Assembly (NCBI GenBank): GCA_965219415.1
Contig: CBDCNP010000002.1
Coordinates: forward strand, 3,104,001-3,168,000
Direction of reading: 5' to 3'
DNA: 64,000 bases
Source of the DNA: Candidatus Marinacidobacterales bacterium
Lineage (GTDB): Bacteria > Acidobacteriota > Vicinamibacteria > Marinacidobacterales > DATDRI01
Below the pieces are notes generated by a model, which made no database searches, was not told the DNA's origin, and was given only the letters and a program-made list of their open reading frames with translations. A program made the position numbers and the translations under genes. This document shows, piece by piece, positions 1 to 9,852 of this stretch (position 1 is the stretch's first letter; each line of letters opens with the position of its first letter).

Positions 1-1
1 C

Positions 2-520
2 CTGAGGGATCAAAACATCCAAGTGCGCACCGGCCGGCGAGTCGTCAAGGTCCACCCGGACACGGTTGAGCTCGAGGACGGTTCTCGCGTCAAGAGTGAT
101 TTGACCGTGTGGCTGACCGGCCCGGCAGGCCCCGGGATCTTCGAAGGCTCGAAGCTCGAGCTCGACGGTCGCGGCTTCCTTCTCGTCGACGACGCCCTTC
201 GCTCGTTGAGCGATCCCAATGTGCTTGGCGTCGGCGATTGTGTCACCCTGGCAAACTATCCGGCCACGCCGAAGGCAGGGGTCTTTGCGGTACGAGAAGC
301 GCCGGTGCTTTGGGAGAGCCTTCTTTCCGCGGTCGGCCAGGGAGCCCTGCCTCGCTACCAACCGCAGGAGGGCTTTCTTTCTATCCTCAATACTGCCGAC
401 GGAAAGGCCCTGCTACGATACAAGTCCTACATCACACATAGTTTTCTCGCCTGGTGGCTCAAGGATTGGATCGATCGGCGTTTTGTGGCGAAGTACCAAG
501 GTCTGGTTGGAGCGAACTAG
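2..520 (+). CDS. FAD-dependent pyridine nucleotide-disulfide oxidoreductase of the type found N-terminally fused to SelD (5' partial)
   Basis: Frame is open from the window edge. Motifs VLGVGDC, PKAGVFAVRE and the C-terminal WWLKDWIDRRFV are typical of the NDH-2-like 'Nterm_to_SelD' family. Confidence 0.75.
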   Translation: MRDQNIQVRTGRRVVKVHPDTVELEDGSRVKSDLTVWLTGPAGPGIFEGSKLELDGRGFLLVDDALRSLSDPNVLGVGDCVTLANYPATPKAGVFAVREAPVLWESLLSAVGQGALPRYQPQEGFLSILNTADGKALLRYKSYITHSFLAWWLKDWIDRRFVAKYQGLVGAN

Positions 521-522
521 CT

Positions 523-1221
523 ATGTACTTCCGCCATTCCGACGAAATGTGGCGGAAGTTTCCGCAGCTCGTTCCTGGAGCGCTGGTTATTGCCGGCGTT
601 CACCCCGATGGCGAAGTGAGCCTCGCGCCCTGGTTCGATCGCGCTCGGGAACGCTTGGAGGCCGGTTCAGAGTCCAAGTTGCCCGAGATCGTCGCTTGGC
701 GTCGTGCCTACGCGCAGATGGGAATGAAACCCACTCAGTACCGTTCCGCGGCCGAGGCGCTTTTGCGTCGCTTCCGGACGGAAGACGATTTGCCTCGTCT
801 TCATCCTCTGGTCGATCTTTGTAACGCAGTCTCGCTGGCCTTCGCACTACCGGTCGCGGTTTTCGATCTCGCCAAAGTGGATCGGCATCTCGAAGTGCGT
901 CATTCAAAAGGTGTCGAGCAGTACTTGACCTTCTCCGGCGAAATTGAGACCCCGCCTCAAGGAGAGGTGATCTTCGCCGACGCTTCGAATCAGGCTCACG
1001 CTCGCCGGTGGACGTTTCGCCAGAGCAAGAGATCGGCGGTGGGCCCGGGGACAACGCGGGCGCTCATTGTCGCGGAGGGATTGCATGAGACGGCCTCCCG
1101 GGATGTCGCCGCACTAATGGACGTGCTCGAAGAGGCGCTCACGAAATCTTGGGCGGCTCCGCAACACCGGGTCCTTCTGAGCGCCGAGGCCCCCCGCTTG
1201 GAGCTCGAGACCGATCTCTGA
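523..1221 (+). CDS. Stand-alone B3/4 (PheRS beta editing-like) domain protein
   Basis: Motifs WRRAYAQMGMKPTQYRSAAEALLRR, PLVDLCNAVSL, VFDLAK and RRWTFRQS. ATG at 523 lies 2 nt after the upstream stop. Confidence 0.85.
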   Translation: MYFRHSDEMWRKFPQLVPGALVIAGVHPDGEVSLAPWFDRARERLEAGSESKLPEIVAWRRAYAQMGMKPTQYRSAAEALLRRFRTEDDLPRLHPLVDLCNAVSLAFALPVAVFDLAKVDRHLEVRHSKGVEQYLTFSGEIETPPQGEVIFADASNQAHARRWTFRQSKRSAVGPGTTRALIVAEGLHETASRDVAALMDVLEEALTKSWAAPQHRVLLSAEAPRLELETDL

Positions 1222-1507
1222 TATTAAAAGGAGGAAGCCATGCCAACGGTTCGATTGAGAAACGTGTCCGAGTATCCCGAGAAGATGCAAAAGCGCTTCG
1301 AGGTGGCCAAGGAGTGGTTCAACTATGACTTCGAGTCACCGCCGGCGATGAGCCTGGTGATGGCGTGGGACCCCGGGTTCGGAGCTCCGCATGGCCGCGC
1401 CATGAAGCGCGCCGCGGAACCTGGAGAGTTCACGCGCGCCGAAAAAGAGATGGTGGCGTCCGTCGTTAGCGGCGTGAACGCCTGCGAGTATTGAGTGAAG
1501 GCACATA

Positions 1508-1527
1508 CTGCGGCCGGGAAGCTGCAG
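1508..1527 (+). promoter_or_regulatory. Putative bacterial SECIS hairpin of the AhpD-like gene
   Basis: CTGCGGC-CGGGAA-GCTGCAG forms a 7-bp stem (one G-U pair). G is at the second loop position and the loop starts 20 nt after the UGA. Confidence 0.65.
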
Positions 1528-1901
1528 GGGATGAAGGAAGACGCACTCTGGTATGAAGCGGCGAACACGGTGGGGATCACCAACGCGCCTCAACGTCGTC
1601 ACCGATTCTCTGTCTCCCGACGCCAATACTCATCTTATCGAGCCCATAGATGAAGGGGCCGACGACAAGAGGACCGCCCTGTGTTTCGCGGAGATCCGAG
1701 ATTTTTACCAGAGTGAGGAAGTGCCGCTTCCGTTTCGGATCGCGGCGCATGACCCGGGCTACCTGGGAGATCTTTGGGAGACCGTCCGACATGCATTCAG
1801 CGATAGACGGCTCACCAGACGTCTCAAGGAGGCGCTGGCATTCGCGGTGTCGGTCACGACGACCTCCCGATTCGGCACCGTCTTTCACCTGGCGGAGATG
1901 C

Positions 1902-3336
1902 GAGTCAAGCCCATTCTTAGTTGAAACTCTCCACGGCTCACGTTTAAGCGACCTTCTTCTTCGATACGGTTGATGTCTTCGCCTCGATCTTCAGTTCCCG
2001 CTTGAGAGCTTCGCGAAGCTTGGGAAGATGGCGGTAGCCCACCACCTTCCTCAAGCGCGGTTCGATGTCTACGAGCGCCGTTGCCAACCAGCGCTGGCGT
2101 TGGCTTGAGTTCTTCCAGTGGTCGACCTTCGTGCAGCGTTCCTCGACGAGAGCATTGACGGACTCAAGGCAGTTCGTCGTCTTGAACGAACGGCCCAGCA
2201 CCGCGTGCACGCCGAGTCGATGCAACGTCAGCGTCTCCTCGAGGCCTTCCTCCAGGCTGCCAGCTGCGGATTGGTTCCGCTCTTCTAACTCACCGTGGAG
2301 TTGCTCGAGCGCAGTGAGGGCCTCTTCGTACTCCGGCCTGTTGTAGGCCCACTGGAGCCGCTTGCGCCATGACGCCTGCTCGCCCTTGGACAGGTAGCTC
2401 ACTACGTTTTCACGTTTGTGCCACTGGCAGCGTTGTATCAGGGCCCGCTTACGGAATGCCTTCTTGACTGCCGCTTGGAGACCCTTGCCGCCGTCGATGA
2501 TCACCAGCAGACCCTGGGAGATATCGAGTCCCCGCTCGAGCAGTGAACGCAGGAACGGCGTCAACACCTGCGCGTTCTCCGTGTCCGTCTCCACGAAGCC
2601 CAAGAAGCGTTTTTCCCCGCAAAGCGTGATGCCCAGAGCCACGACCATCGTTGCCTCGGCGAATGTCTTCCCATCCAGAAACAGCGCCACCACATCCTCG
2701 CCGGTCAGATCCCGTTCCTGCATCTCCCGCAGCTTCGCAGCGCTCGCTTGCACGAACCCTCGGGACACCGTTGAGCTCGACAGCCCGATGGCGCCCGGAA
2801 TCGCTTCCGCTGCCGCCTCGTAGTTGCGACAAGAGATTCCGTAGAGAACTCGTTTCAGCAGAAGATCATTCACCTCACCGCCGTGGCTCACCGCCTCGTA
2901 GCAGCGAAGCGGAATCTCTCCTCCCTCGATGCTCCGAACCCGTGGCACACGGATCGGTACCCGCTGGCCGCCAAGCCCTACCGTGCCCGGGTTGCTTCCG
3001 GGACGGCGACCGCGCTCCAGCTCGTCCTTGCGAGAGTATCGCTCTCCCGCCAACGCCTTCACTTCGTCGTCGAGCAACTCGTGAACGTGCATTAGACCAA
3101 GGGGGACCAACCAACGGATCATCTCTACCTTGGCGTCCAGCGCGAGTTCCCCGTAATCCTCGTGCCTCACCATCTCGACCTCACCCAAACGACGCGACTT
3201 CTTGCGTTTCTTGACCGAACGTAGCAGACTTCCCATCTCGGCTCCTTTCTTCGCGGCTTGATTTTGTTTTGTCCAACGCCATCAAACCACGGGGTTTGGA
3301 GCCGTTTCAATTCCCAACTAAGATTGGCACACTTTC
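1902..3336 (-). mobile_element. IS256-family insertion sequence (~1435 bp)
   Basis: Imperfect terminal IRs: GAGTCAAGCCCATTCTTAGTTG at left, and the reverse complement of the right end reads GAAAGTGTGCCAATCTTAGTTG. Flanking 8-bp TSD GGAGATGC (1894-1901) / GCAGATGC (3337-3344), one mismatch. Confidence 0.9.
1944..3236 (-). CDS. IS256 (Mutator-like) DDE transposase
   Basis: Motifs FLDGK, VALGI..G.KRFLG, IIDGGKGL, QRCQWHKRENV and TTNCLES; 430 aa. Confidence 0.93.
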   Translation of the reverse strand: MGSLLRSVKKRKKSRRLGEVEMVRHEDYGELALDAKVEMIRWLVPLGLMHVHELLDDEVKALAGERYSRKDELERGRRPGSNPGTVGLGGQRVPIRVPRVRSIEGGEIPLRCYEAVSHGGEVNDLLLKRVLYGISCRNYEAAAEAIPGAIGLSSSTVSRGFVQASAAKLREMQERDLTGEDVVALFLDGKTFAEATMVVALGITLCGEKRFLGFVETDTENAQVLTPFLRSLLERGLDISQGLLVIIDGGKGLQAAVKKAFRKRALIQRCQWHKRENVVSYLSKGEQASWRKRLQWAYNRPEYEEALTALEQLHGELEERNQSAAGSLEEGLEETLTLHRLGVHAVLGRSFKTTNCLESVNALVEERCTKVDHWKNSSQRQRWLATALVDIEPRLRKVVGYRHLPKLREALKRELKIEAKTSTVSKKKVA

Positions 3337-3514
3337 GCAGATGCGCCGGCTGGGAGTAGGAAACAAGGGAGTCATGGAAGTATTAGGCATGACCCAGATG
3401 TTCTCTAGCTACACGAAGATCGCGGATACCCTTCAGCTGGATCCCGACATGAGTGAGATCGCACCCATCGACCGATCTCCCGTGCCCGATCCAAGCTGAA
3501 TCGAGGAGGGAATC

Positions 3515-4171
3515 ATGAAAAAGTGGTTCATTGGAATCGCCATAGTTGCCGGCGTGGCCGGCCTCGCCGGCTGGGGCTACTATTACGCTCTCGAGAAGGC
3601 ATGGATTCCCTACAACGAGTACGACATCCGTTCAGAGGGCACGCTGAGGGTGGGCGATCTCGCACCCGACTTGGAGCTCGCGAGTGCGGACGGGGGGACT
3701 CAAAAATTATCCGATCTCTTCAAACAAAAGCCGTTGGTTCTCATCTTTGGAAGCTACACCTGACCGCCGTTTCGAGCCAGTTTGGCCGAAGTCGAAGAGC
3801 TGAGAACAAAGTATCGAAACGACGCCGAGTTTGCCATCGTTTACATCAAAGAGGCCCATCCCGGGGACGAGTGGCAAGTAGATAGCAACACCGAGGGGGA
3901 AGTCATCTATAACCAGCCGAATTCCTTCGAGGCCCGGATGGATCTCGCCAAGACTTTCATTGACAAGATGGACGTGAAGACCCCGACGCTGGTCGACGAT
4001 ATCCAGAACACCGCCATGGCTTGCTACGCGGCGTGGCCGGAAAGGCTCTACGTCATCGAGACCGGCGGCACCATTGCCTACAAGGGGGATATGGGACCCT
4101 TCGGATTCAAGCCTGAGAAGGTGGAGAGCTACCTCGAGGAGCGTTTCGCCGGAAGGGGCGCGACAGACTAG
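3515..4171 (+). CDS. Iodothyronine deiodinase-like selenoprotein with N-terminal membrane anchor (Sec at TGA 3761-3763)
   Basis: ORFs 3515-3763 and 3782-4171 are in the same frame across the TGA: KPLVLIFGSYT-U-PPFR. Downstream deiodinase motifs YIKEAHPGDEW, YAAWPERLYVI and GPFGF. RBS GAGGAGG. Confidence 0.9.
3771..3790 (+). promoter_or_regulatory. Putative bacterial SECIS hairpin of the deiodinase-like gene
   Basis: TTCG-A-GCCA-GTT-TGGC-CGAA forms a stem with an A bulge. The apical loop begins with G, 16 nt after the UGA. Confidence 0.65.
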
Positions 4172-4230
4172 CCTCGTTCCAACTTGAACCTGGCCTAAGC
4201 TTCGGTGTTTGATTTCGGCGAAGTCCAAAA

Positions 4231-5300
4231 ATGAAACCCAACCTTGCTCTTCCGCTCCCCGGATCCGGGCAGCAGATTCGGGCTTTGCAACGAGAGCGGA
4301 AGGCCTTGGCCGTCGAGAGCGCGGGGCGGTCTCGTTTCTGGCGGCCGAGACTGACCCATATCGACACCTCGAAGCTGGACGAACCGGAGGAGTGGCGGAA
4401 GATACCGATCCTTGACAAGGAGATGCTTCGCTCCCTTTCCAACGACCAGTTTTACAACGACTTCTGCATTCCGGCTCCCGGTAAGATAGCCGAACACTGG
4501 CGCTCTGGTGGGACAACAGGGAGGCCGCTCTTTTATCTCCGTACGTTCGAAGACATTCGTTACGCGATGGTGGGCTTCGCACGAAGCTTCATGGCGATGA
4601 ACGTGCAGCCCGGTGAAACCGCGCATCTCTCCCTCCCGCTGGGCATCCACCCGGCCGGTCACATGTGGGCCCGGGCCGGCGAGATGATGGGGATCGGCAT
4701 GAACTGGGTCGGATCGGGAGCCGCGGCGCCTTCGGAGCTCCAGCTCGAGCTGATCGCCACTCTGAAGCCCTCGCTTTGGATCGGCATGCCTAGCTACGGC
4801 CTTCACCTAGCCAACCTTGCGGGCGCTCGGGGTCAGAATCTCCGAGACGGGTCGGTCCAAAAAATTCTGTGCACGGCCGAGCCGCTGTCCCGAGCCAAGC
4901 GCGAAAAGCTCGAGCGCGCGTGGGGAGCCGAAGTGTACGACGCTTTCGGCATGACCGAAGTTTCGATGATGGGTGCCGAAGGCGAGGCAGGGGATGGCCT
5001 CCACATGTGGGCCGACCTTGCGTTCATCGAGGTCGTCGATCCCGCTACCAGCGAGCCTGTGCCGGCTGGCGAACCTGGACTCCTGGTGGTCACGTCACTT
5101 TTCACGAACAACACGACACCTTTTCTAAGATGGTGCTCGGGCGACATCGTGGCTTATCGCGAGCAACGCCACGGCGAGGATCCACTCTCGGTTTTTCCCC
5201 TCCTCCGCCATGCTCACCGAACCGCTGGTTTCTTCAAGATTCGTGGCGTCAACATTAACCACTCGGAGCTCGAGGACCTGATGTTCGCCGATTCCGATTC
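4231..5300 (+). CDS. Phenylacetate-CoA ligase (PaaK)-like adenylating enzyme, C-terminal domain apparently truncated
   Basis: Motifs IPILDKEMLR, RSGGTTGRP, TAEPLS, YDAFGMTE, FLRWCSGD and FFKIRGVNI..SELEDL. Similarity ends near 5300 and the frame runs on into the next gene. Confidence 0.75.
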
Positions 5301-5394
5301 TAGACCGGAGACAGTAGCACGGTTACTCTCGGCCCTCCCAAGGCGAGCCGCCCGACTCGTGGTAGTATCGATCTCGGCGTCCTTCCTAAGAACG

Positions 5395-6429
5395 ATGAAG
5401 ACAGCATCTCCACCAACGGCCGAGGACGTAAAAGAACTCGCCCTCGAGCTGGGGGCCGATCTCGTCGGCGTCGCGAGCGCCAAGACACTTAACGCCTTCC
5501 CTCCAGACCCCAAGTATCCGCAGACCCCGGAGCGCGTCTCGCCTTACTGCAAGAGCGTCATCGTCGTCGTGCAACGCATCCCGGTCGGTGCCTTCCGCTG
5601 TAAATCCAATGTGCCGGTTCAGTACTTGGACATGCTCGTGCTCCGGAAGATGGACAAGGTCGCCTACCGGTTGGCCGAGCATTTGGAGCGAGCAGGTTAT
5701 CCGTCCTTTGTTACCGCGGCCCAGGAGACCGACTGGAACTATAAGCGAGCCAGCTACGGGAGGCTGAGCACGCGCCACCTCGGGATCGAAGCGGGACTCG
5801 GTACTTTCGGTCTCGAAGTCAACATTTTGACGCCGGAGTACGGGCCGCGAGTCTACCTCACCGGAATTCTGACCGAGCTCGAGCTCGAGCCCGATGCACC
5901 CATGACCGAGCAGGTGTGTATCGGTGAGTCCTGCAGCCGGTGTCTCTACAGTTGTCCGACCGATGCCATAGGGCATTTCGACATCGACAAACGCGACTGC
6001 GCGAAAGAGGCGCAAGAGTTCGGATTCACCACCATCCTCAAGTATTTCGAGCGTTTCGTGGCGTCGTCCCGGGAGACCAAGGCGGGGATGCTGAAATCGC
6101 GTGACCTGTACGGATTTTGGCAGGGGTTGCTACGGGTAGTCGGATCCTTCGGGGACTGTCCGCGATGCCTCGCCGTCTGCCCGGTCGGAGACGACTACTA
6201 CGCGCATTTGGTCGAGATACAGAAGTTCATTCCCGAAACGACCGACGAAAAGATCACCAAGGCCAAGGGGTTCAAGGCGGCCCGCAAGCGTGGCGATGCC
6301 ATCGAGGGGCTCAACGAATGGAACGCCCGATGGGTGGGACCGGAGGGCTACCAAGGGCTCGTCGCACGGCACCTGAAGAAATTCCGTGAGAAACAAAAGG
6401 CGCTTCTAGCGCGGTCTGCGAAGAGATAG
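5395..6429 (+). CDS. QueG/reductive dehalogenase-like 2x[4Fe-4S] (putatively cobalamin-binding) protein, paralog 1
   Basis: Motifs VKELALELGADLVGVA, EAGLGTFG...LTPEYGPRVYLTGILTEL, CIGESCSRCLYSCP and CPRCLAVCP. Probable own start at ATG 5395, in frame with the PaaK ORF. Confidence 0.75.
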   Translation: MKTASPPTAEDVKELALELGADLVGVASAKTLNAFPPDPKYPQTPERVSPYCKSVIVVVQRIPVGAFRCKSNVPVQYLDMLVLRKMDKVAYRLAEHLERAGYPSFVTAAQETDWNYKRASYGRLSTRHLGIEAGLGTFGLEVNILTPEYGPRVYLTGILTELELEPDAPMTEQVCIGESCSRCLYSCPTDAIGHFDIDKRDCAKEAQEFGFTTILKYFERFVASSRETKAGMLKSRDLYGFWQGLLRVVGSFGDCPRCLAVCPVGDDYYAHLVEIQKFIPETTDEKITKAKGFKAARKRGDAIEGLNEWNARWVGPEGYQGLVARHLKKFREKQKALLARSAKR

Positions 6430-6439
6430 TTCCCGCATT

Positions 6440-7456
6440 ATGATCGAGACTTACCAAGCGCCGCTTACCGCCCAGCAGATCAAGGCAAAGGCACGTGAGC
6501 TCGGCGCCGACTTGGTCGGAATCGCCGACGGCAAGGTGATGGAGGAACACCCTCCCGAACCGAGCGATCCGCGGCGACCCTCCGATATCACCGACTATGA
6601 CGCCGATCGCGTCATCGTCATGGCGAAAAAGTATACGAGCGGCACCTCCCGCATTCTCCCCTGGAACGATCGCCACAAGTACTACAACGACGAGCTGACT
6701 TTAACCATGTTGGAAGAGGCCTCGCTGGAGCTCGTTTACTGGCTCGAGGACAACGGCTATCCGTCGGTCATCATTCCTCCCACCCACGTCGACCCCTGGC
6801 GCTATCAAGACCAGCCGGAGGAACATCAAAAGACGCTACTATCGCTCACCCATGCTGCGGTCGAGGCGGGATTGGGGACCCTCGGCCTAAACCTGCAGCT
6901 GCTTACCCCCGAGTACGGACCGCGGGTGATTCTCACTGCGGTGCTGTGCTCCGTGGACTGCGAAGCAGGCAGTCGCGTCGAAGAAGCGTTATGTCTCGGA
7001 CCCGAGTGTGGGCGGTGTTTGGAAACCTGTCCCGGAGACGTCGTCCAACATTGGAATCGCGATTGGGAAGGCTGTGATCGTTACCGATCACCCCACGGCT
7101 TCGCCCAGCTCACCGACCATCTGGTCAACATCCTGGACCAGACGGACGTCCCCAAGCAAAAAGAGATGATCCGCTCGGAGGAAAGCTTCAACCTCTGGCA
7201 GAGTATTTTGCGAGGGGCCGGCGTCATTACTGGCTGCCGCCGCTGCCAAGACGTCTGCCCGGTGGGAGAAGACTACGCCGCCCTCGAGGATGCACTCGAG
7301 GAGCTCCCGGAGAGCACGCCCGAGAAGAAGCAACGTCTCCTAGAGATGATGAAGGTCGAGAAAAAGGAAATCCCCCCTGGCGGCTACCAAGCCCAGCGCC
7401 GCTGGATCGGGGAGGTTACGTACCGGAAGCCCTGGCCTAAAGCTTTCGACGTTTGA
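6440..7456 (+). CDS. QueG/reductive dehalogenase-like 2x[4Fe-4S] protein, paralog 2
   Basis: Motifs IKAKARELGADLVGIA, HAAVEAGLGTLG...LTPEYGPRVILTAVL, CLGPECGRCLETCP and CRRCQDVCP. Confidence 0.78.
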   Translation: MIETYQAPLTAQQIKAKARELGADLVGIADGKVMEEHPPEPSDPRRPSDITDYDADRVIVMAKKYTSGTSRILPWNDRHKYYNDELTLTMLEEASLELVYWLEDNGYPSVIIPPTHVDPWRYQDQPEEHQKTLLSLTHAAVEAGLGTLGLNLQLLTPEYGPRVILTAVLCSVDCEAGSRVEEALCLGPECGRCLETCPGDVVQHWNRDWEGCDRYRSPHGFAQLTDHLVNILDQTDVPKQKEMIRSEESFNLWQSILRGAGVITGCRRCQDVCPVGEDYAALEDALEELPESTPEKKQRLLEMMKVEKKEIPPGGYQAQRRWIGEVTYRKPWPKAFDV

Positions 7457-7665
7457 GTAACAGGAATTCTCAAGTGGGTTAGGGCGCGCCCACGACAGTG
7501 TCATCCCCTAACTAACCCAGTAGCTAGAGCTTACGGTCATAGGGTTCCGTTGGTCATATTTTATATTCTTTAATTAGCTCTATGAGATAACTATTGCAAA
7601 TAAATTATGAGAATCGCCGAAATTGTGATATTATCGATGCAACAATTAGCCTCAAAGAAGAACTA

Positions 7666-8502
7666 ATGAACTCACAATATCACGCTCCGGCCAAGACACT
7701 GGGACCCCAAGCGGCGGGCCTCGTGGTGGCGTTGTATGAATGTGATCGCCCCGTTTTCACAGTGAAGGAGGCGGCGGACATTACGGGACTAGGTCCAGCC
7801 GCCGCCGCCAGGTTCCTGCACAAGCTCGCGCGACGTGGAATCCTGACCCACTTGGGACGTGGCCTCTACAGGCTCATCCCTTTCGAATTGGGTTCGGCAC
7901 GCGAGTTCCTTGGCAATCCGTTCGTTATCGTGCGTGAGTTCGCGCGGGGCGCCGACTACTACGTCTCCCACGCATCGGCAATGGACATTCATGGCATGCT
8001 CACCCAACCCCAACTCGTCGTGTACGCAACCTCCCCGAAGCAGATTCGGAGTCGGGAGGTGCTGGGCACCGTGTTCCGGCTCGTGCGATGCAAGGCAAAT
8101 CATTTTTTCGGCACGTTCGAGCACTGGGCAGACAAGCAGGAAAAGATCGTCGTGAGCGACCTAGAGCGGACTGTGCTGGACGGCCTGAAGCAGCCACAGT
8201 ACACCGGAGGGATTACCGAGGTCGCCAAGGGGATGTGGATGAGGCGGGATGGTCTCAGCGTTCCCAAACTCGTCGACTACGCGCTCCGGCTCGGAATCGG
8301 CGCAGTCGTTCGCCGCTTGGGTTTTCTGCTCGAGCTCTATGAGCTTGGACCTTCGACGGAGTTGGATCGCCTTCGGGATAAACTGAGCTCGACGTACATG
8401 CTTCTCGACCCGCTGCTTTCTCCGGGAGGCAAGTACTTGTCTCGCTGGCGACTGCGCCTCAATGTAATACCCGAGGAACTTCAAACCGTCGTACGTACGT
8501 GA
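7666..8502 (+). CDS. abiEi: Type IV TA antitoxin, AbiEi-family transcriptional regulator
   Basis: N-terminal wHTH (L..LARRG.LTHLGRGLY), YYVSHASAM..HG, VSDLERTVLDGL and RRLGFLLE. Directly upstream of an AbiEii gene. Confidence 0.8.
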   Translation: MNSQYHAPAKTLGPQAAGLVVALYECDRPVFTVKEAADITGLGPAAAARFLHKLARRGILTHLGRGLYRLIPFELGSAREFLGNPFVIVREFARGADYYVSHASAMDIHGMLTQPQLVVYATSPKQIRSREVLGTVFRLVRCKANHFFGTFEHWADKQEKIVVSDLERTVLDGLKQPQYTGGITEVAKGMWMRRDGLSVPKLVDYALRLGIGAVVRRLGFLLELYELGPSTELDRLRDKLSSTYMLLDPLLSPGGKYLSRWRLRLNVIPEELQTVVRT

Positions 8503-8505
8503 ACT

Positions 8506-9348
8506 ATGATCCACCAGCGCAACCTTTCGCTACTCTCGAACCGTCTCGCGAGGAAAGGTGGACACCGGATTCCCGAACGAGTTCTTGAGCGGGACTATTG
8601 CCTAGCGTGGTTCCTTGTCTCCCTCTCAAAAACACCCCTCCGTAAGTTCCTGGCATTCAAGGGAGGAACGGCCCTGAAGCGCTGCTATTTCGGCGACTAC
8701 AGGTTCTCCGAGGACCTCGATTTTACGCTGCAATCCGAAACGACTTGGGAAGAGATCCGTCGAAATCTTGATCAGGTTCTCGATGAAGTCCGACGCGCCT
8801 CGGCGATCGTCTTCGAGTTCCTAGAGAGGGACGGAAGGAGTCACGAGAATAGCCACACGTTCTACCTTGGCTACGAAGGACCGCTCCCGGCAAGCTCTGG
8901 AAGAAGGGTGAAAGTAGACATCACAATCAAAGAAAGGGGCGTTTTCTCATTAGAAGATCGACCGGTCTTACGAGGATACGATGAATACGAAGACTTGCCG
9001 GACGATAGCCCGATCTTAGTCTACTCCCTCAAGGAAATTGCGACGGAGAAAGTAGTCGCCCTCATAGATCCGGCGCGGAACGAACCTCGCGACTTGTACG
9101 ACATATGGTTTCTGGAAAGCAGCGGCTCCGTCAGAGTCGATGATCTCTTGAGCGCCGTCGAGGAGAAGTTGGACTTTCGCGGGAAGACTCTCACCGACGT
9201 GAAAAGCGTATTCCACACCAAGGAGAGCCGGTACAAGCGGCTCTGGGAAGGACGCCTCTCCGCACAGATGAGGGAGATCCCGGAGTTCGAGAAGGTCTAT
9301 CGCGAGGTGCAACGAGCATTCAGACAGGCGGGCCTATTGGAGAAATAG
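8506..9348 (+). CDS. abiEii: Type IV TA toxin, AbiEii-family nucleotidyltransferase
   Basis: Motifs ERDY, FKGGTALKRCYFGDYRFSEDLDF, EK..AL and PRDLYD. Confidence 0.9.
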   Translation: MIHQRNLSLLSNRLARKGGHRIPERVLERDYCLAWFLVSLSKTPLRKFLAFKGGTALKRCYFGDYRFSEDLDFTLQSETTWEEIRRNLDQVLDEVRRASAIVFEFLERDGRSHENSHTFYLGYEGPLPASSGRRVKVDITIKERGVFSLEDRPVLRGYDEYEDLPDDSPILVYSLKEIATEKVVALIDPARNEPRDLYDIWFLESSGSVRVDDLLSAVEEKLDFRGKTLTDVKSVFHTKESRYKRLWEGRLSAQMREIPEFEKVYREVQRAFRQAGLLEK

Positions 9349-9465
9349 TAGAGGTCATTTTGCGAGAATTCCAAAGAATACACGATTTGATCTGTATCAC
9401 AGTCACTTCCACCCCTTCCGTGGTAGAACTCAACTGCGGGCTTCTCGAGTCCGCAGGGGGTTCCA

Positions 9466-9852
9466 ATGATGAGAATCGATCACGCCTCGGTCCTCTTCCA
9501 GAACTGGACGTCCTCGAAGGGTTTGAGTGAGGTCCAGGAAACCTTTTCGTCGATCGACGAGCTGTTCGACCTTTGTGTTGTTAAGAAGATGTCCCCGGAA
9601 CGGGTCTTCCTGTCGGGTAAGGATGATACGGGTCGCGAACACTTTCTTACGCTACTCTACGGCGCGATGCGCGTTGCACCGGACGATTCGGTCGAACAGG
9701 AAGAGCCCAGCGTCTCGGGTGTGCCGCGGGAACAGAATTCTTCCGCTCCATCGCCCGCTCCCAAGCAACGGTCGTTGACTCAACTAGAGCTAGAGCGGGG
9801 CGGTACTCGATGCCATGAGCAACAGGCGTACACCGGCGAGTCCAACGGATGA
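9466..9852 (+). CDS. Hypothetical protein
   Basis: 128-aa ORF preceded by GGGGG at SD spacing; no recognisable motif. Confidence 0.35.
   Translation: MMRIDHASVLFQNWTSSKGLSEVQETFSSIDELFDLCVVKKMSPERVFLSGKDDTGREHFLTLLYGAMRVAPDDSVEQEEPSVSGVPREQNSSAPSPAPKQRSLTQLELERGGTRCHEQQAYTGESNG

Follow-up and report, generated by a model that had tools for sequence, protein, structure and literature searches.

The question raised by this locus is whether a run of tandem genes, in which two selenoprotein genes stand beside two genes for QueG/RdhA-like iron-sulfur proteins, encodes one metabolic pathway or separate units brought together. The genes occupy positions 2-7456 of the window, a 64,000-nucleotide stretch from a Candidatus Marinacidobacterales bacterium (G000:C3:3104001-3168000). 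The genome, G000, is a metagenome-assembled genome (MAG) of 8.05 Mb in three contigs with an estimated contamination of 8.45%. In order, the locus holds genes for a flavoprotein, a B3/4-domain protein, an AhpD-like protein and a deiodinase-like protein, followed by a PaaK-like ligase remnant joined to the first QueG-like protein and by the second QueG-like protein. An earlier reading of the sequence, referred to here as the original prediction, had proposed that they form one operon for the processing of halogenated aromatic compounds. The comparisons described below make it likely that the region is instead a genus-specific, operon-like mosaic, built from units that are inherited separately elsewhere: redox genes of known selenoprotein families, joined by a twin-reductase cassette that is decaying. 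Since the grouping is found in one genus only and is partly broken in the window, the locus is poor evidence for a new dehalogenation pathway.

The genes were called by open reading frame (ORF) listing, translation with TGA read as selenocysteine (Sec), and profile scans with Pfam and NCBIfam models. All of the gene families named in the original prediction were recovered by these scans. Its picture of seven co-oriented, tightly spaced genes did not hold, as a minus-strand insertion sequence (IS) lies inside the AhpD-like gene, the same gene carries a frameshift, and the ligase and the first QueG-like protein form one ORF. Two other genomes of the same genus, G001 and G002, were available for comparison and have 86-88% DNA identity to the window at the locus. 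No Rfam match was obtained in window 1-9500 at E <= 0.1, and the output of promoter and terminator scans was at the level of shuffled sequence.

The linkage of the genes outside the genus was evaluated by tblastn, with the proteins of the window locus as queries. One genome per species was scanned for the twin QueG/RdhA-like pair, which gave 58 loci, 56 of them outside the genus; none of these 56 had the flavoprotein, B3/4, AhpD-like or deiodinase-like gene at a distance of up to 9 kb from the twin. When the deiodinase-like gene was used as the anchor and 8 kb were searched on each side, other genes of the locus were found in 0 of 20 loci, and no neighbouring family recurred in more than three of these 20 Acidobacteriota loci. 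The AhpD-like protein had 125 metagenomic matches, of which 80 were kept; none of the 77 that lie outside the genus had other locus genes beside it. Three metagenomic loci, L153-L155 (L numbers denote extracted loci), do carry the AhpD-like gene together with other locus genes, and these are at least 93% identical, represent the same lineage and have the G001 type of gene order. Other locus genes were likewise found in 0/29 B3/4 loci, a test covering 1.5 kb per side and distant homologues only. In G003, a genome of the sister genus, the flavoprotein orthologue (67% identical) is surrounded by unrelated genes, with the other locus genes absent within 9 kb. The linkage is thus absent outside the genus from every anchor tested, indicating that the genes were brought together once, at the level of the genus. 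Co-occurrence in other genomes had been named beforehand as the test of one halo-aromatic pathway or operon, and the counts of 0/56, 0/20 and 0/77 went against it.

A different association was found to be widely conserved. Among 61 relatives searched, close matches to the twin were present only in G000, G001 and G002. The 56 loci outside the genus belong mostly to Alphaproteobacteria, Burkholderiales and Rokubacteria MAGs, with 62-75% identity in the species scan; compared subunit by subunit, the pair is 65-78% identical to those of the same groups. In 52 of them the order is subunit 1, subunit 2, PaaK-like ligase, and of the four loci that deviate three stop at the edge of their contig, so that the connection drawn in the original prediction between the ligase and the twin was well founded. 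In 14-20 of these 56 loci, genes for a Liv-type ABC transporter lie next to the three genes. Judged from these sequences, the twin and the PaaK-like ligase form a widespread, highly conserved three-gene cassette with about 70% identity across phyla. No description of such a cassette was found in literature searches, and a search for papers on the Marinacidobacterales likewise came back empty. The window copy shares with the cassette elsewhere the two paralogous subunits, the RdhA/QueG fold and eight invariant cysteines. However, its truncated ligase precedes the pair rather than following it and is fused to subunit 1, so the standard order is not found; in the sister genomes the ligase is displaced or was not found; and only in the window genus does the pair directly follow selenoprotein genes.

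The ligase and the first subunit are read from a single ORF of 732 codons (4231-6429, plus strand), the first half of which is PaaK-like and the second half QueG/RdhA-like. The remnant of the PaaK-like adenylate-forming ligase, at 4231-5394, consists of about 352 homologous codons followed by about 35 codons without a homologue, which read in frame into the QueG-like protein. It fell far below the cut-offs of both ligase models (NF041878, 136.5 bits vs. 700; TIGR02155, 111.4 bits vs. 646.3). The C-terminal subdomain is missing, as intact relatives extend about 75 residues further and end in a K-A-P-R-F motif. The possibility was considered that a diverged ligase C-terminus persists across 5295-5535, where tblastn extended the match of an intact ligase; this extension was taken instead for an alignment that, with gaps, runs on into the N-terminus of the QueG-like protein. 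Neither G001 nor G002 has the segment 4169-5418, a difference that may reflect either an insertion in G000 or a deletion in the G001/G002 line. In G002 the only close homologue of the ligase is a 72%-identical copy at a distance of 30 kb, interrupted by a stop before residue ~40; nothing above 29% identity was found in G001. The ligase is therefore decayed or missing across the genus, and the window fragment is presumably dead. The junction near 5300 that had been suspected from the sequence is real.

Public contigs were aligned to window 1-7600. The informative runs, X1, X2 and X7, come from three independent studies; the source sample may itself be one of X1 and X2, and X7 is the only witness sure to be independent. 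Contigs of X1 and X2 reproduced 1-1880/1928 and 3312/3339-7600 with zero differences, and an X7 contig spanned 3530-7592, so that independent contigs cover 3339-7600 and with it the 4200-5400 region for which read support had been sought. Both ligase junctions were bridged by contigs of all three runs. Because the contig from the third study also spans the ligase/QueG-like junctions, these are not assembly artefacts. At a depth of 4.4, the X7 contig has one base more than the window at 3854, within the deiodinase-like gene, and one base fewer at 4849, within the ligase remnant; these may be assembly errors or further decay in another strain.

The two QueG/RdhA-fold iron-sulfur proteins, of 344 residues counted from the ATG at 5395 (protein 1, 5395-6429) and 338 residues (protein 2, 6440-7456), are both encoded on the plus strand and are 34-35% identical to each other. 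Protein 1 is 94% identical to its G001 counterpart, with a ratio of nonsynonymous to synonymous substitution rates (dN/dS) of 0.055. The window amounts to a natural experiment, in which the twin remains under strong purifying selection while its own ligase decays. The description of the pair as dehalogenase-like was upheld for the fold and for the two 4Fe-4S motifs, but not at the level of family membership. Proteins 1 and 2 scored 40.1 and 25.1 bits with the reductive dehalogenase (RDH) model TIGR02486, against a cut-off of 160.35, and 55.4 and 38.4 bits with the QueG model TIGR00276, against a cut-off of 200. Neither PF13486 (RdhA) nor PF08331 (QueG DUF1730) matched the twin proteins. The cysteines of protein 1 are invariant, and eight cysteines are invariant in protein 2 among 45 sequences. 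A profile of subunit 2 matched the PceA-type RdhA 8q4h (E 4e-9), QueG 5d08 (1e-7) and NpRdhA (3e-4), a match limited to about 70 residues round the conserved core and the first cluster motif.

The fold of protein 2 was modelled with AlphaFold2. The model obtained with a diverse alignment had a mean predicted local distance difference test score (pLDDT) of 90.7 and was used for the fold search; the model from a shallow alignment (54.8) was excluded. The Foldseek matches ranked 1-46 were all RdhA or QueG structures (NpRdhA, PceA, the RDH complex and QueG), with a probability of 1.00, E-values of 2.5e-7 to 2e-5 and a template modelling (TM) score of about 0.47. The weaker matches that came next were the B12 chaperones CblC/MMACHC. 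The modelled fold, together with the two 4Fe-4S cysteine motifs, places the twin in the RdhA/QueG structural superfamily and suggests that it is an iron-sulfur, probably corrinoid, reductase. Compared with RdhA (PceA 4uqu, RDH complex 8q4h, NpRdhA 4ras) and QueG (5d08, 5d6s), the twin has the same G-L-G...G-x-N...G-P-R core and the two 4Fe-4S motifs. It differs in the modest TM score and the short stretch of sequence similarity, in scores far under the family cut-offs, and in being encoded as two paralogous subunits; furthermore, the twin-arginine signal of RdhA and the C-terminal tRNA-binding part of QueG are both absent.

Two observations bear on a possible association of the subunits. Natural fusions of subunit 1 to subunit 2 occur (P0121 and P0122); they are 48-54% identical to the corresponding halves. 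In addition, structure prediction of the complex gave weak support, with an ipSAE (interaction prediction score from aligned errors) of 0.58, against 0.00 for the best of three controls. Of 80 solved complexes 58 attain the mark, as do 2 of 110 mismatched pairs, and values of 0.60 or less came from only 7 of the 80 solved complexes and from both of those mismatches. At least 87% of contacts were shared between the prediction runs, and the pLDDT of the partner was at least 87.

More distant relatives of the twin were seen as well. A second, far more distant tandem QueG/RdhA-like pair is present in the same genome (G000:C1:1352786-1354645; L291:1287-3145), with an in-frame TGA outside the likely coding part. 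Six proteins of 760-794 residues (P0208, P0235, P0237, P0238, P0247 and P0270) combine an N-terminal part related to the twin with further Fe-S domains. One of them matches QueG DUF1730. These proteins represent a further undescribed architecture within the superfamily.

The AhpD-like selenoprotein gene, on the plus strand, is disrupted in the window. Its 5' two thirds lie at 1240-1902, and the 3' end, the last 50-odd codons, lies at 3339-3499 and corresponds to residues 210-270 of the protein in G001. The gene passed PF02627 (34.7 bits vs. 23) and TIGR00778 (40.4 vs. 27.8); it failed the model of the true AhpD subfamily, TIGR00777, with 16.3 bits vs. 191.95. The Sec codon is the TGA at 1492-1494 in the motif C-E-Y-U. 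The intact orthologue in G001 (L035:10459-11268) has 270 residues, one Sec codon and two CMD-like halves. When aligned with both sister genomes, the window gene has one extra base at about 1586-1588, a +1 frameshift.

The second lesion is an insertion sequence of 1436 base pairs (bp) at 1903-3338, on the minus strand, with a transposase ORF at 3236-1944 (NF033543, 208.9 bits vs. a cut-off of 150). The element has imperfect terminal inverted repeats of 29 nucleotides (72%), with a 7-bp target duplication on its two sides (1896-1902 and 3339-3345), and 41 matches to it were found in the genome, which has at least 40 copies. Transposase, inverted repeats, target duplication and multiple copies all assign it to the IS256 family. 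The AhpD-like gene is left in three pieces by the frameshift and by the IS inside its second half, and the window copy is a pseudogene. The IS is absent at the locus in G001 and G002. Moreover, an IS-free joint from 1895 to 3339 with a 7-base overlap, corresponding to the empty site, was seen in runs X2 and X7, and the X7 contig also lacks the extra base at 1588. In X1, a contig of unique sequence continued for 26 bases into the left end of the IS. As alleles without the IS and without the frameshift exist in public contigs, both lesions are recent and still polymorphic. The dN/dS of the 3' piece relative to G001 is 0.04, and that of the broken pieces overall 0.03-0.14, low values that likewise indicate a recent inactivation.

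The AhpD-like family is sparse in the phylum, with a homologue in 3/301 sampled Acidobacteriota genomes. Both C-x-x-U AhpD-like proteins and deiodinase-like proteins were recognised as selenoproteins of prokaryotes in 2005, the deiodinase-like ones being first reported from the metagenome of the Sargasso Sea, according to the available part of that report (PMC1088965), and both appear in the accessible sections of a 2026 review that notes the co-location of Prx-like and AhpD-like genes (PMC13188914). As far as the available text of these two sources goes, the bacterial members of both families are regarded as redox proteins. The window family resembles the known members, as portrayed in the same parts of PMC1088965 and PMC13188914, in its CMD core and in the C-x-x-U that replaces the C-x-x-C of AhpD. 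It differs in its two-domain form of 270 residues. A paralogue with 36% identity and an in-frame TGA is found elsewhere in the genome (G000:C3:3644692-3645432, L292) and may cover for the disrupted copy. In metagenome loci from soil and sediment (L156-L232), an AhpD-like gene of about 70% identity is followed by a convergent gene for a multihaem cytochrome c in 50 of 77, for example in L159:7753-8994.

The second selenoprotein gene encodes a deiodinase-family protein of 218 residues with a thioredoxin/peroxiredoxin fold (3515-4171, plus strand). Its Sec codon, TGA 3761-3763, lies within FGSYT-U-PPF. The protein passed PF00837 (127.8 bits vs. 27) and also the AhpC-TSA model PF00578 (37.2 bits vs. 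a cut-off of 26); it failed NF038285, with 189.7 bits vs. 250 and an alignment covering only model positions 177-338 of 347. It matched mouse Dio3 (4tr3) at E 2.4e-28, with a catalytic domain about 40% identical over 160 residues, and Dio2 (9h48) at E 7.8e-21. The likeness to the prokaryotic deiodinase-like selenoproteins of PF00837, as presented in the available part of PMC1088965, comprises Sec in FGS-x-T-U-PPF and a hairpin past the UGA. In the portions of PMC1088965 and PMC13188914 that could be consulted, the authors anticipate a redox role of the bacterial members rather than thyroid-hormone deiodination. Literature searches for functional work on bacterial deiodinases found none. A hydrophobic anchor at residues 4-26 and a positive N-terminus suggest that the domain faces the periplasm. 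A homologue at E <= 1e-10 is present in 44 genomes of the same sample of 301. Being common, with an animal-like active site and without a conserved neighbour, the deiodinase-family selenoproteins of the Acidobacteriota are a clean target for biochemistry.

The in-frame TGA codons of both genes are more than chance, since the codon is kept in 43 of 46 deiodinase-like matches (40 of 43 when three unpublished genomes are left out) and the C-x-Y-TGA motif in 80 of 80 metagenomic AhpD-like loci. The genome was also found to possess the Sec machinery that the original prediction had asked for: selA, selB, selD with its own in-frame TGA, and a tRNA-Sec of 69.7 bits. Candidate bacterial selenocysteine insertion sequence (SECIS) hairpins follow both codons. 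In the AhpD-like gene the candidate is at 1508-1527 (plus strand), with a 7-bp stem and a G-rich loop of 6 nucleotides, and starts 16 nucleotides past the U of the UGA; its z-score of -1.05 is not significant for a single hairpin. The candidate of the deiodinase-like gene, at 3768-3794 (plus strand), has the apical loop GUU. When the 40 bases from the UGA onwards were folded, the minimum-energy structure of 14 of 20 deiodinase-like homologues included a hairpin of 5 bp or more that begins 8-19 nucleotides downstream. The stem sequences vary between lineages, and the z-scores of single segments ranged from -3.6 to +0.75, so that single hairpins are weak evidence. RNAalifold returned no consensus pairs for 15 ungapped post-UGA segments because the hairpins occupy different registers.

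The first two genes of the locus are taken as one unit of the proposed mosaic. The C-terminal 172 codons of the flavoprotein, a member of the TIGR03169-type FAD/NAD(P)H (flavin adenine dinucleotide/nicotinamide adenine dinucleotide (phosphate)) disulfide-oxidoreductase family, lie at 2-520 on the plus strand; the gene starts at L011:13396, 605 bases upstream of the window. The assignment to the SelD-associated type was borne out by an alignment of the whole protein to model positions 2-365 of TIGR03169, a full-length match, but the score of 304.9 bits narrowly missed the cut-off of 310 (PF07992, 103.4 bits). Relatives at the level of the order carry the homologue as the N-terminal half of a fusion with SelD, which was checked for L274 (TIGR03169, 381.2 bits; selD, 248.8 bits). 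The window protein resembles this N-terminal domain in the full-length model match and differs from it in standing alone, with 35-44% identity to the SelD-fused flavoproteins. The SelD of G000 itself is a separate selenoprotein gene 780 kb from the flavoprotein. The solo B3/4-domain protein (523-1221, plus strand; PF03483, 83.2 bits vs. a cut-off of 29.3) has its start codon 2 bases past the flavoprotein stop, and its dN/dS relative to G001 is 0.17. The flavoprotein is a stand-alone paralogue of the SelD-fused domain and is translationally coupled to the B3/4 gene. Most relatives in two neighbouring families have flavoprotein-SelD fusions of 750-900 residues, while the window genus has both proteins separate.

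The identities of the genes, their lesions, the junctions and the distribution of the families are shown by the data, whereas the enzymatic functions are inferred for every gene. Under the mosaic reading, these functions would fall to separate units: the SelD-type flavoprotein paralogue coupled to the B3/4 protein, the two-domain AhpD-like protein, the membrane-anchored deiodinase-family protein and the twin reductase. In the window itself the AhpD-like unit is lost, knocked out by the polymorphic IS256 insertion and the frameshift, and the twin carries the presumably dead ligase fragment fused to subunit 1. The selenoproteins would most likely participate in thiol/selenol redox chemistry, as an AhpD-to-peroxiredoxin-type relay that is possibly fed by the flavoprotein. 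Such a relay is the most economical guess by analogy with Lpd-AhpD-AhpC, and it fits the AhpC-TSA match of the deiodinase-like protein and the reported co-location of Prx-like and AhpD-like genes. The twin would most likely reduce an organic acid activated with coenzyme A (CoA) or adenosine monophosphate. A shared halo-aromatic pathway is not indicated and is without comparative support. The lineage-specific juxtaposition is a caution against inferring function from a single gene order.

Several findings weigh against a mosaic of unrelated units. All six genes are intact in G001, with gaps of no more than 18 bases, and the stop of the deiodinase-like gene there overlaps the GTG start of the first QueG-like gene. 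Furthermore, all six are under purifying selection (dN/dS 0.03-0.17), and the arrangement is kept in G001, G002 and the metagenome contig L153. Within the genus, the six-gene block looks like an operon, and there may be co-transcription and some functional coupling. The active-site region of the deiodinase-like protein is strikingly near that of the animal deiodinases. The neighbourhood tests are of bounded reach too, in that tblastn would miss very distant analogues of the partner genes and the B3/4 test covered a short span round distant homologues. A rival reading is a genus-specific operon that has nothing to do with halogens, in which the flavoprotein, the AhpD-like protein and the deiodinase-like protein form a low-potential thiol/selenol relay to the twin, replacing the usual reductant. 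The tight coupling in G001 and its retention in G002 and L153, the selection on all six genes, and the fact that the conserved cassette has no dedicated reductase gene are in keeping with this proposal. However, the linkage comes from one lineage and represents a single evolutionary event, and the population tolerates loss of the AhpD-like gene. The known RdhA/QueG enzymes are reduced by ferredoxin/flavodoxin-type or fused reductase modules rather than by thiols, which also argues against it. Such a relay operon is considered unlikely.

The pathway put forward originally is judged to be quite improbable. It would use selenium and cobalamin together: halogenated aryl acids, such as iodo- or bromo-tyrosine derivatives, would be converted to CoA esters and dehalogenated by two chemistries, with electrons from the AhpD-like protein and the flavoprotein. 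The conserved deiodinase-family active site, the modelled RdhA/QueG fold of the twin, the ligase-twin linkage kept elsewhere, and the tight packing in G001 with its stop/start overlap of the deiodinase-like and first QueG-like genes are all compatible with it, as are the Sec machinery and the one cobalamin riboswitch of the genome. Contigs from a sponge metatranscriptome match the locus flank (193-341) and the IS, and sponges are rich in brominated tyrosine derivatives, as stated in the available part of PMC12203066. The sponge metatranscriptome run, X19, covered only 8 of 30 bins, mostly in the IS, and is uninformative on expression of the locus. Against these points, the selenoprotein genes occur without the twin outside the genus (0/56, 0/20, 0/77), in each of the three genomes of the genus the ligase is either cut short, out of place or not found, G000 has a disrupted AhpD-like gene, the twin scores under the RDH and QueG cut-offs, and the deiodinase-like domain would lie in the periplasm, apart from its cytoplasmic partners. 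A bolder version is an even longer shot: that the genus, maybe sponge-associated, couples a Sec-containing deiodinase homologue and a B12-type two-subunit reductase in one translationally coupled operon with a Sec-AhpD/flavoprotein relay, and so debrominates or deiodinates tyrosine-derived natural products. If true, it would be the first case of animal-type and bacterial-type reductive dehalogenation chemistries cooperating. The notion that the IS, the ligase/QueG-like fusion and the frameshift were created by assembly of the MAG is almost certainly wrong. The contamination of the MAG, its many identical IS copies and the different reading of the frameshift site in X7 could be cited for it. 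However, X1 and X2 contigs are identical to the window on both sides of the IS and the X7 contig spans both ligase junctions; additionally, the X1 contig enters the left IS end, and the IS-free joint has the exact 7-base duplication expected of transposition. The preferred interpretation is still the genus-specific mosaic.

The DNA on either side of the locus was also inspected. The upstream flank (L011:11492-13309, 2.7-0.7 kb before the window) is rich in mobile elements and holds an IS6-family transposase gene (NF033587, 212.7 bits) adjoining a gene for a DAO-family FAD oxidoreductase. The latter lacks its first 60-100 residues in G000 and is full length in G001. Directly past the locus, window 7594-9348 encodes an AbiEi-like antitoxin (PF13338, 32.3 bits) together with a nucleotidyltransferase toxin of the AbiEii type (PF08843, 123 bits); at this site G001 holds different DNA.

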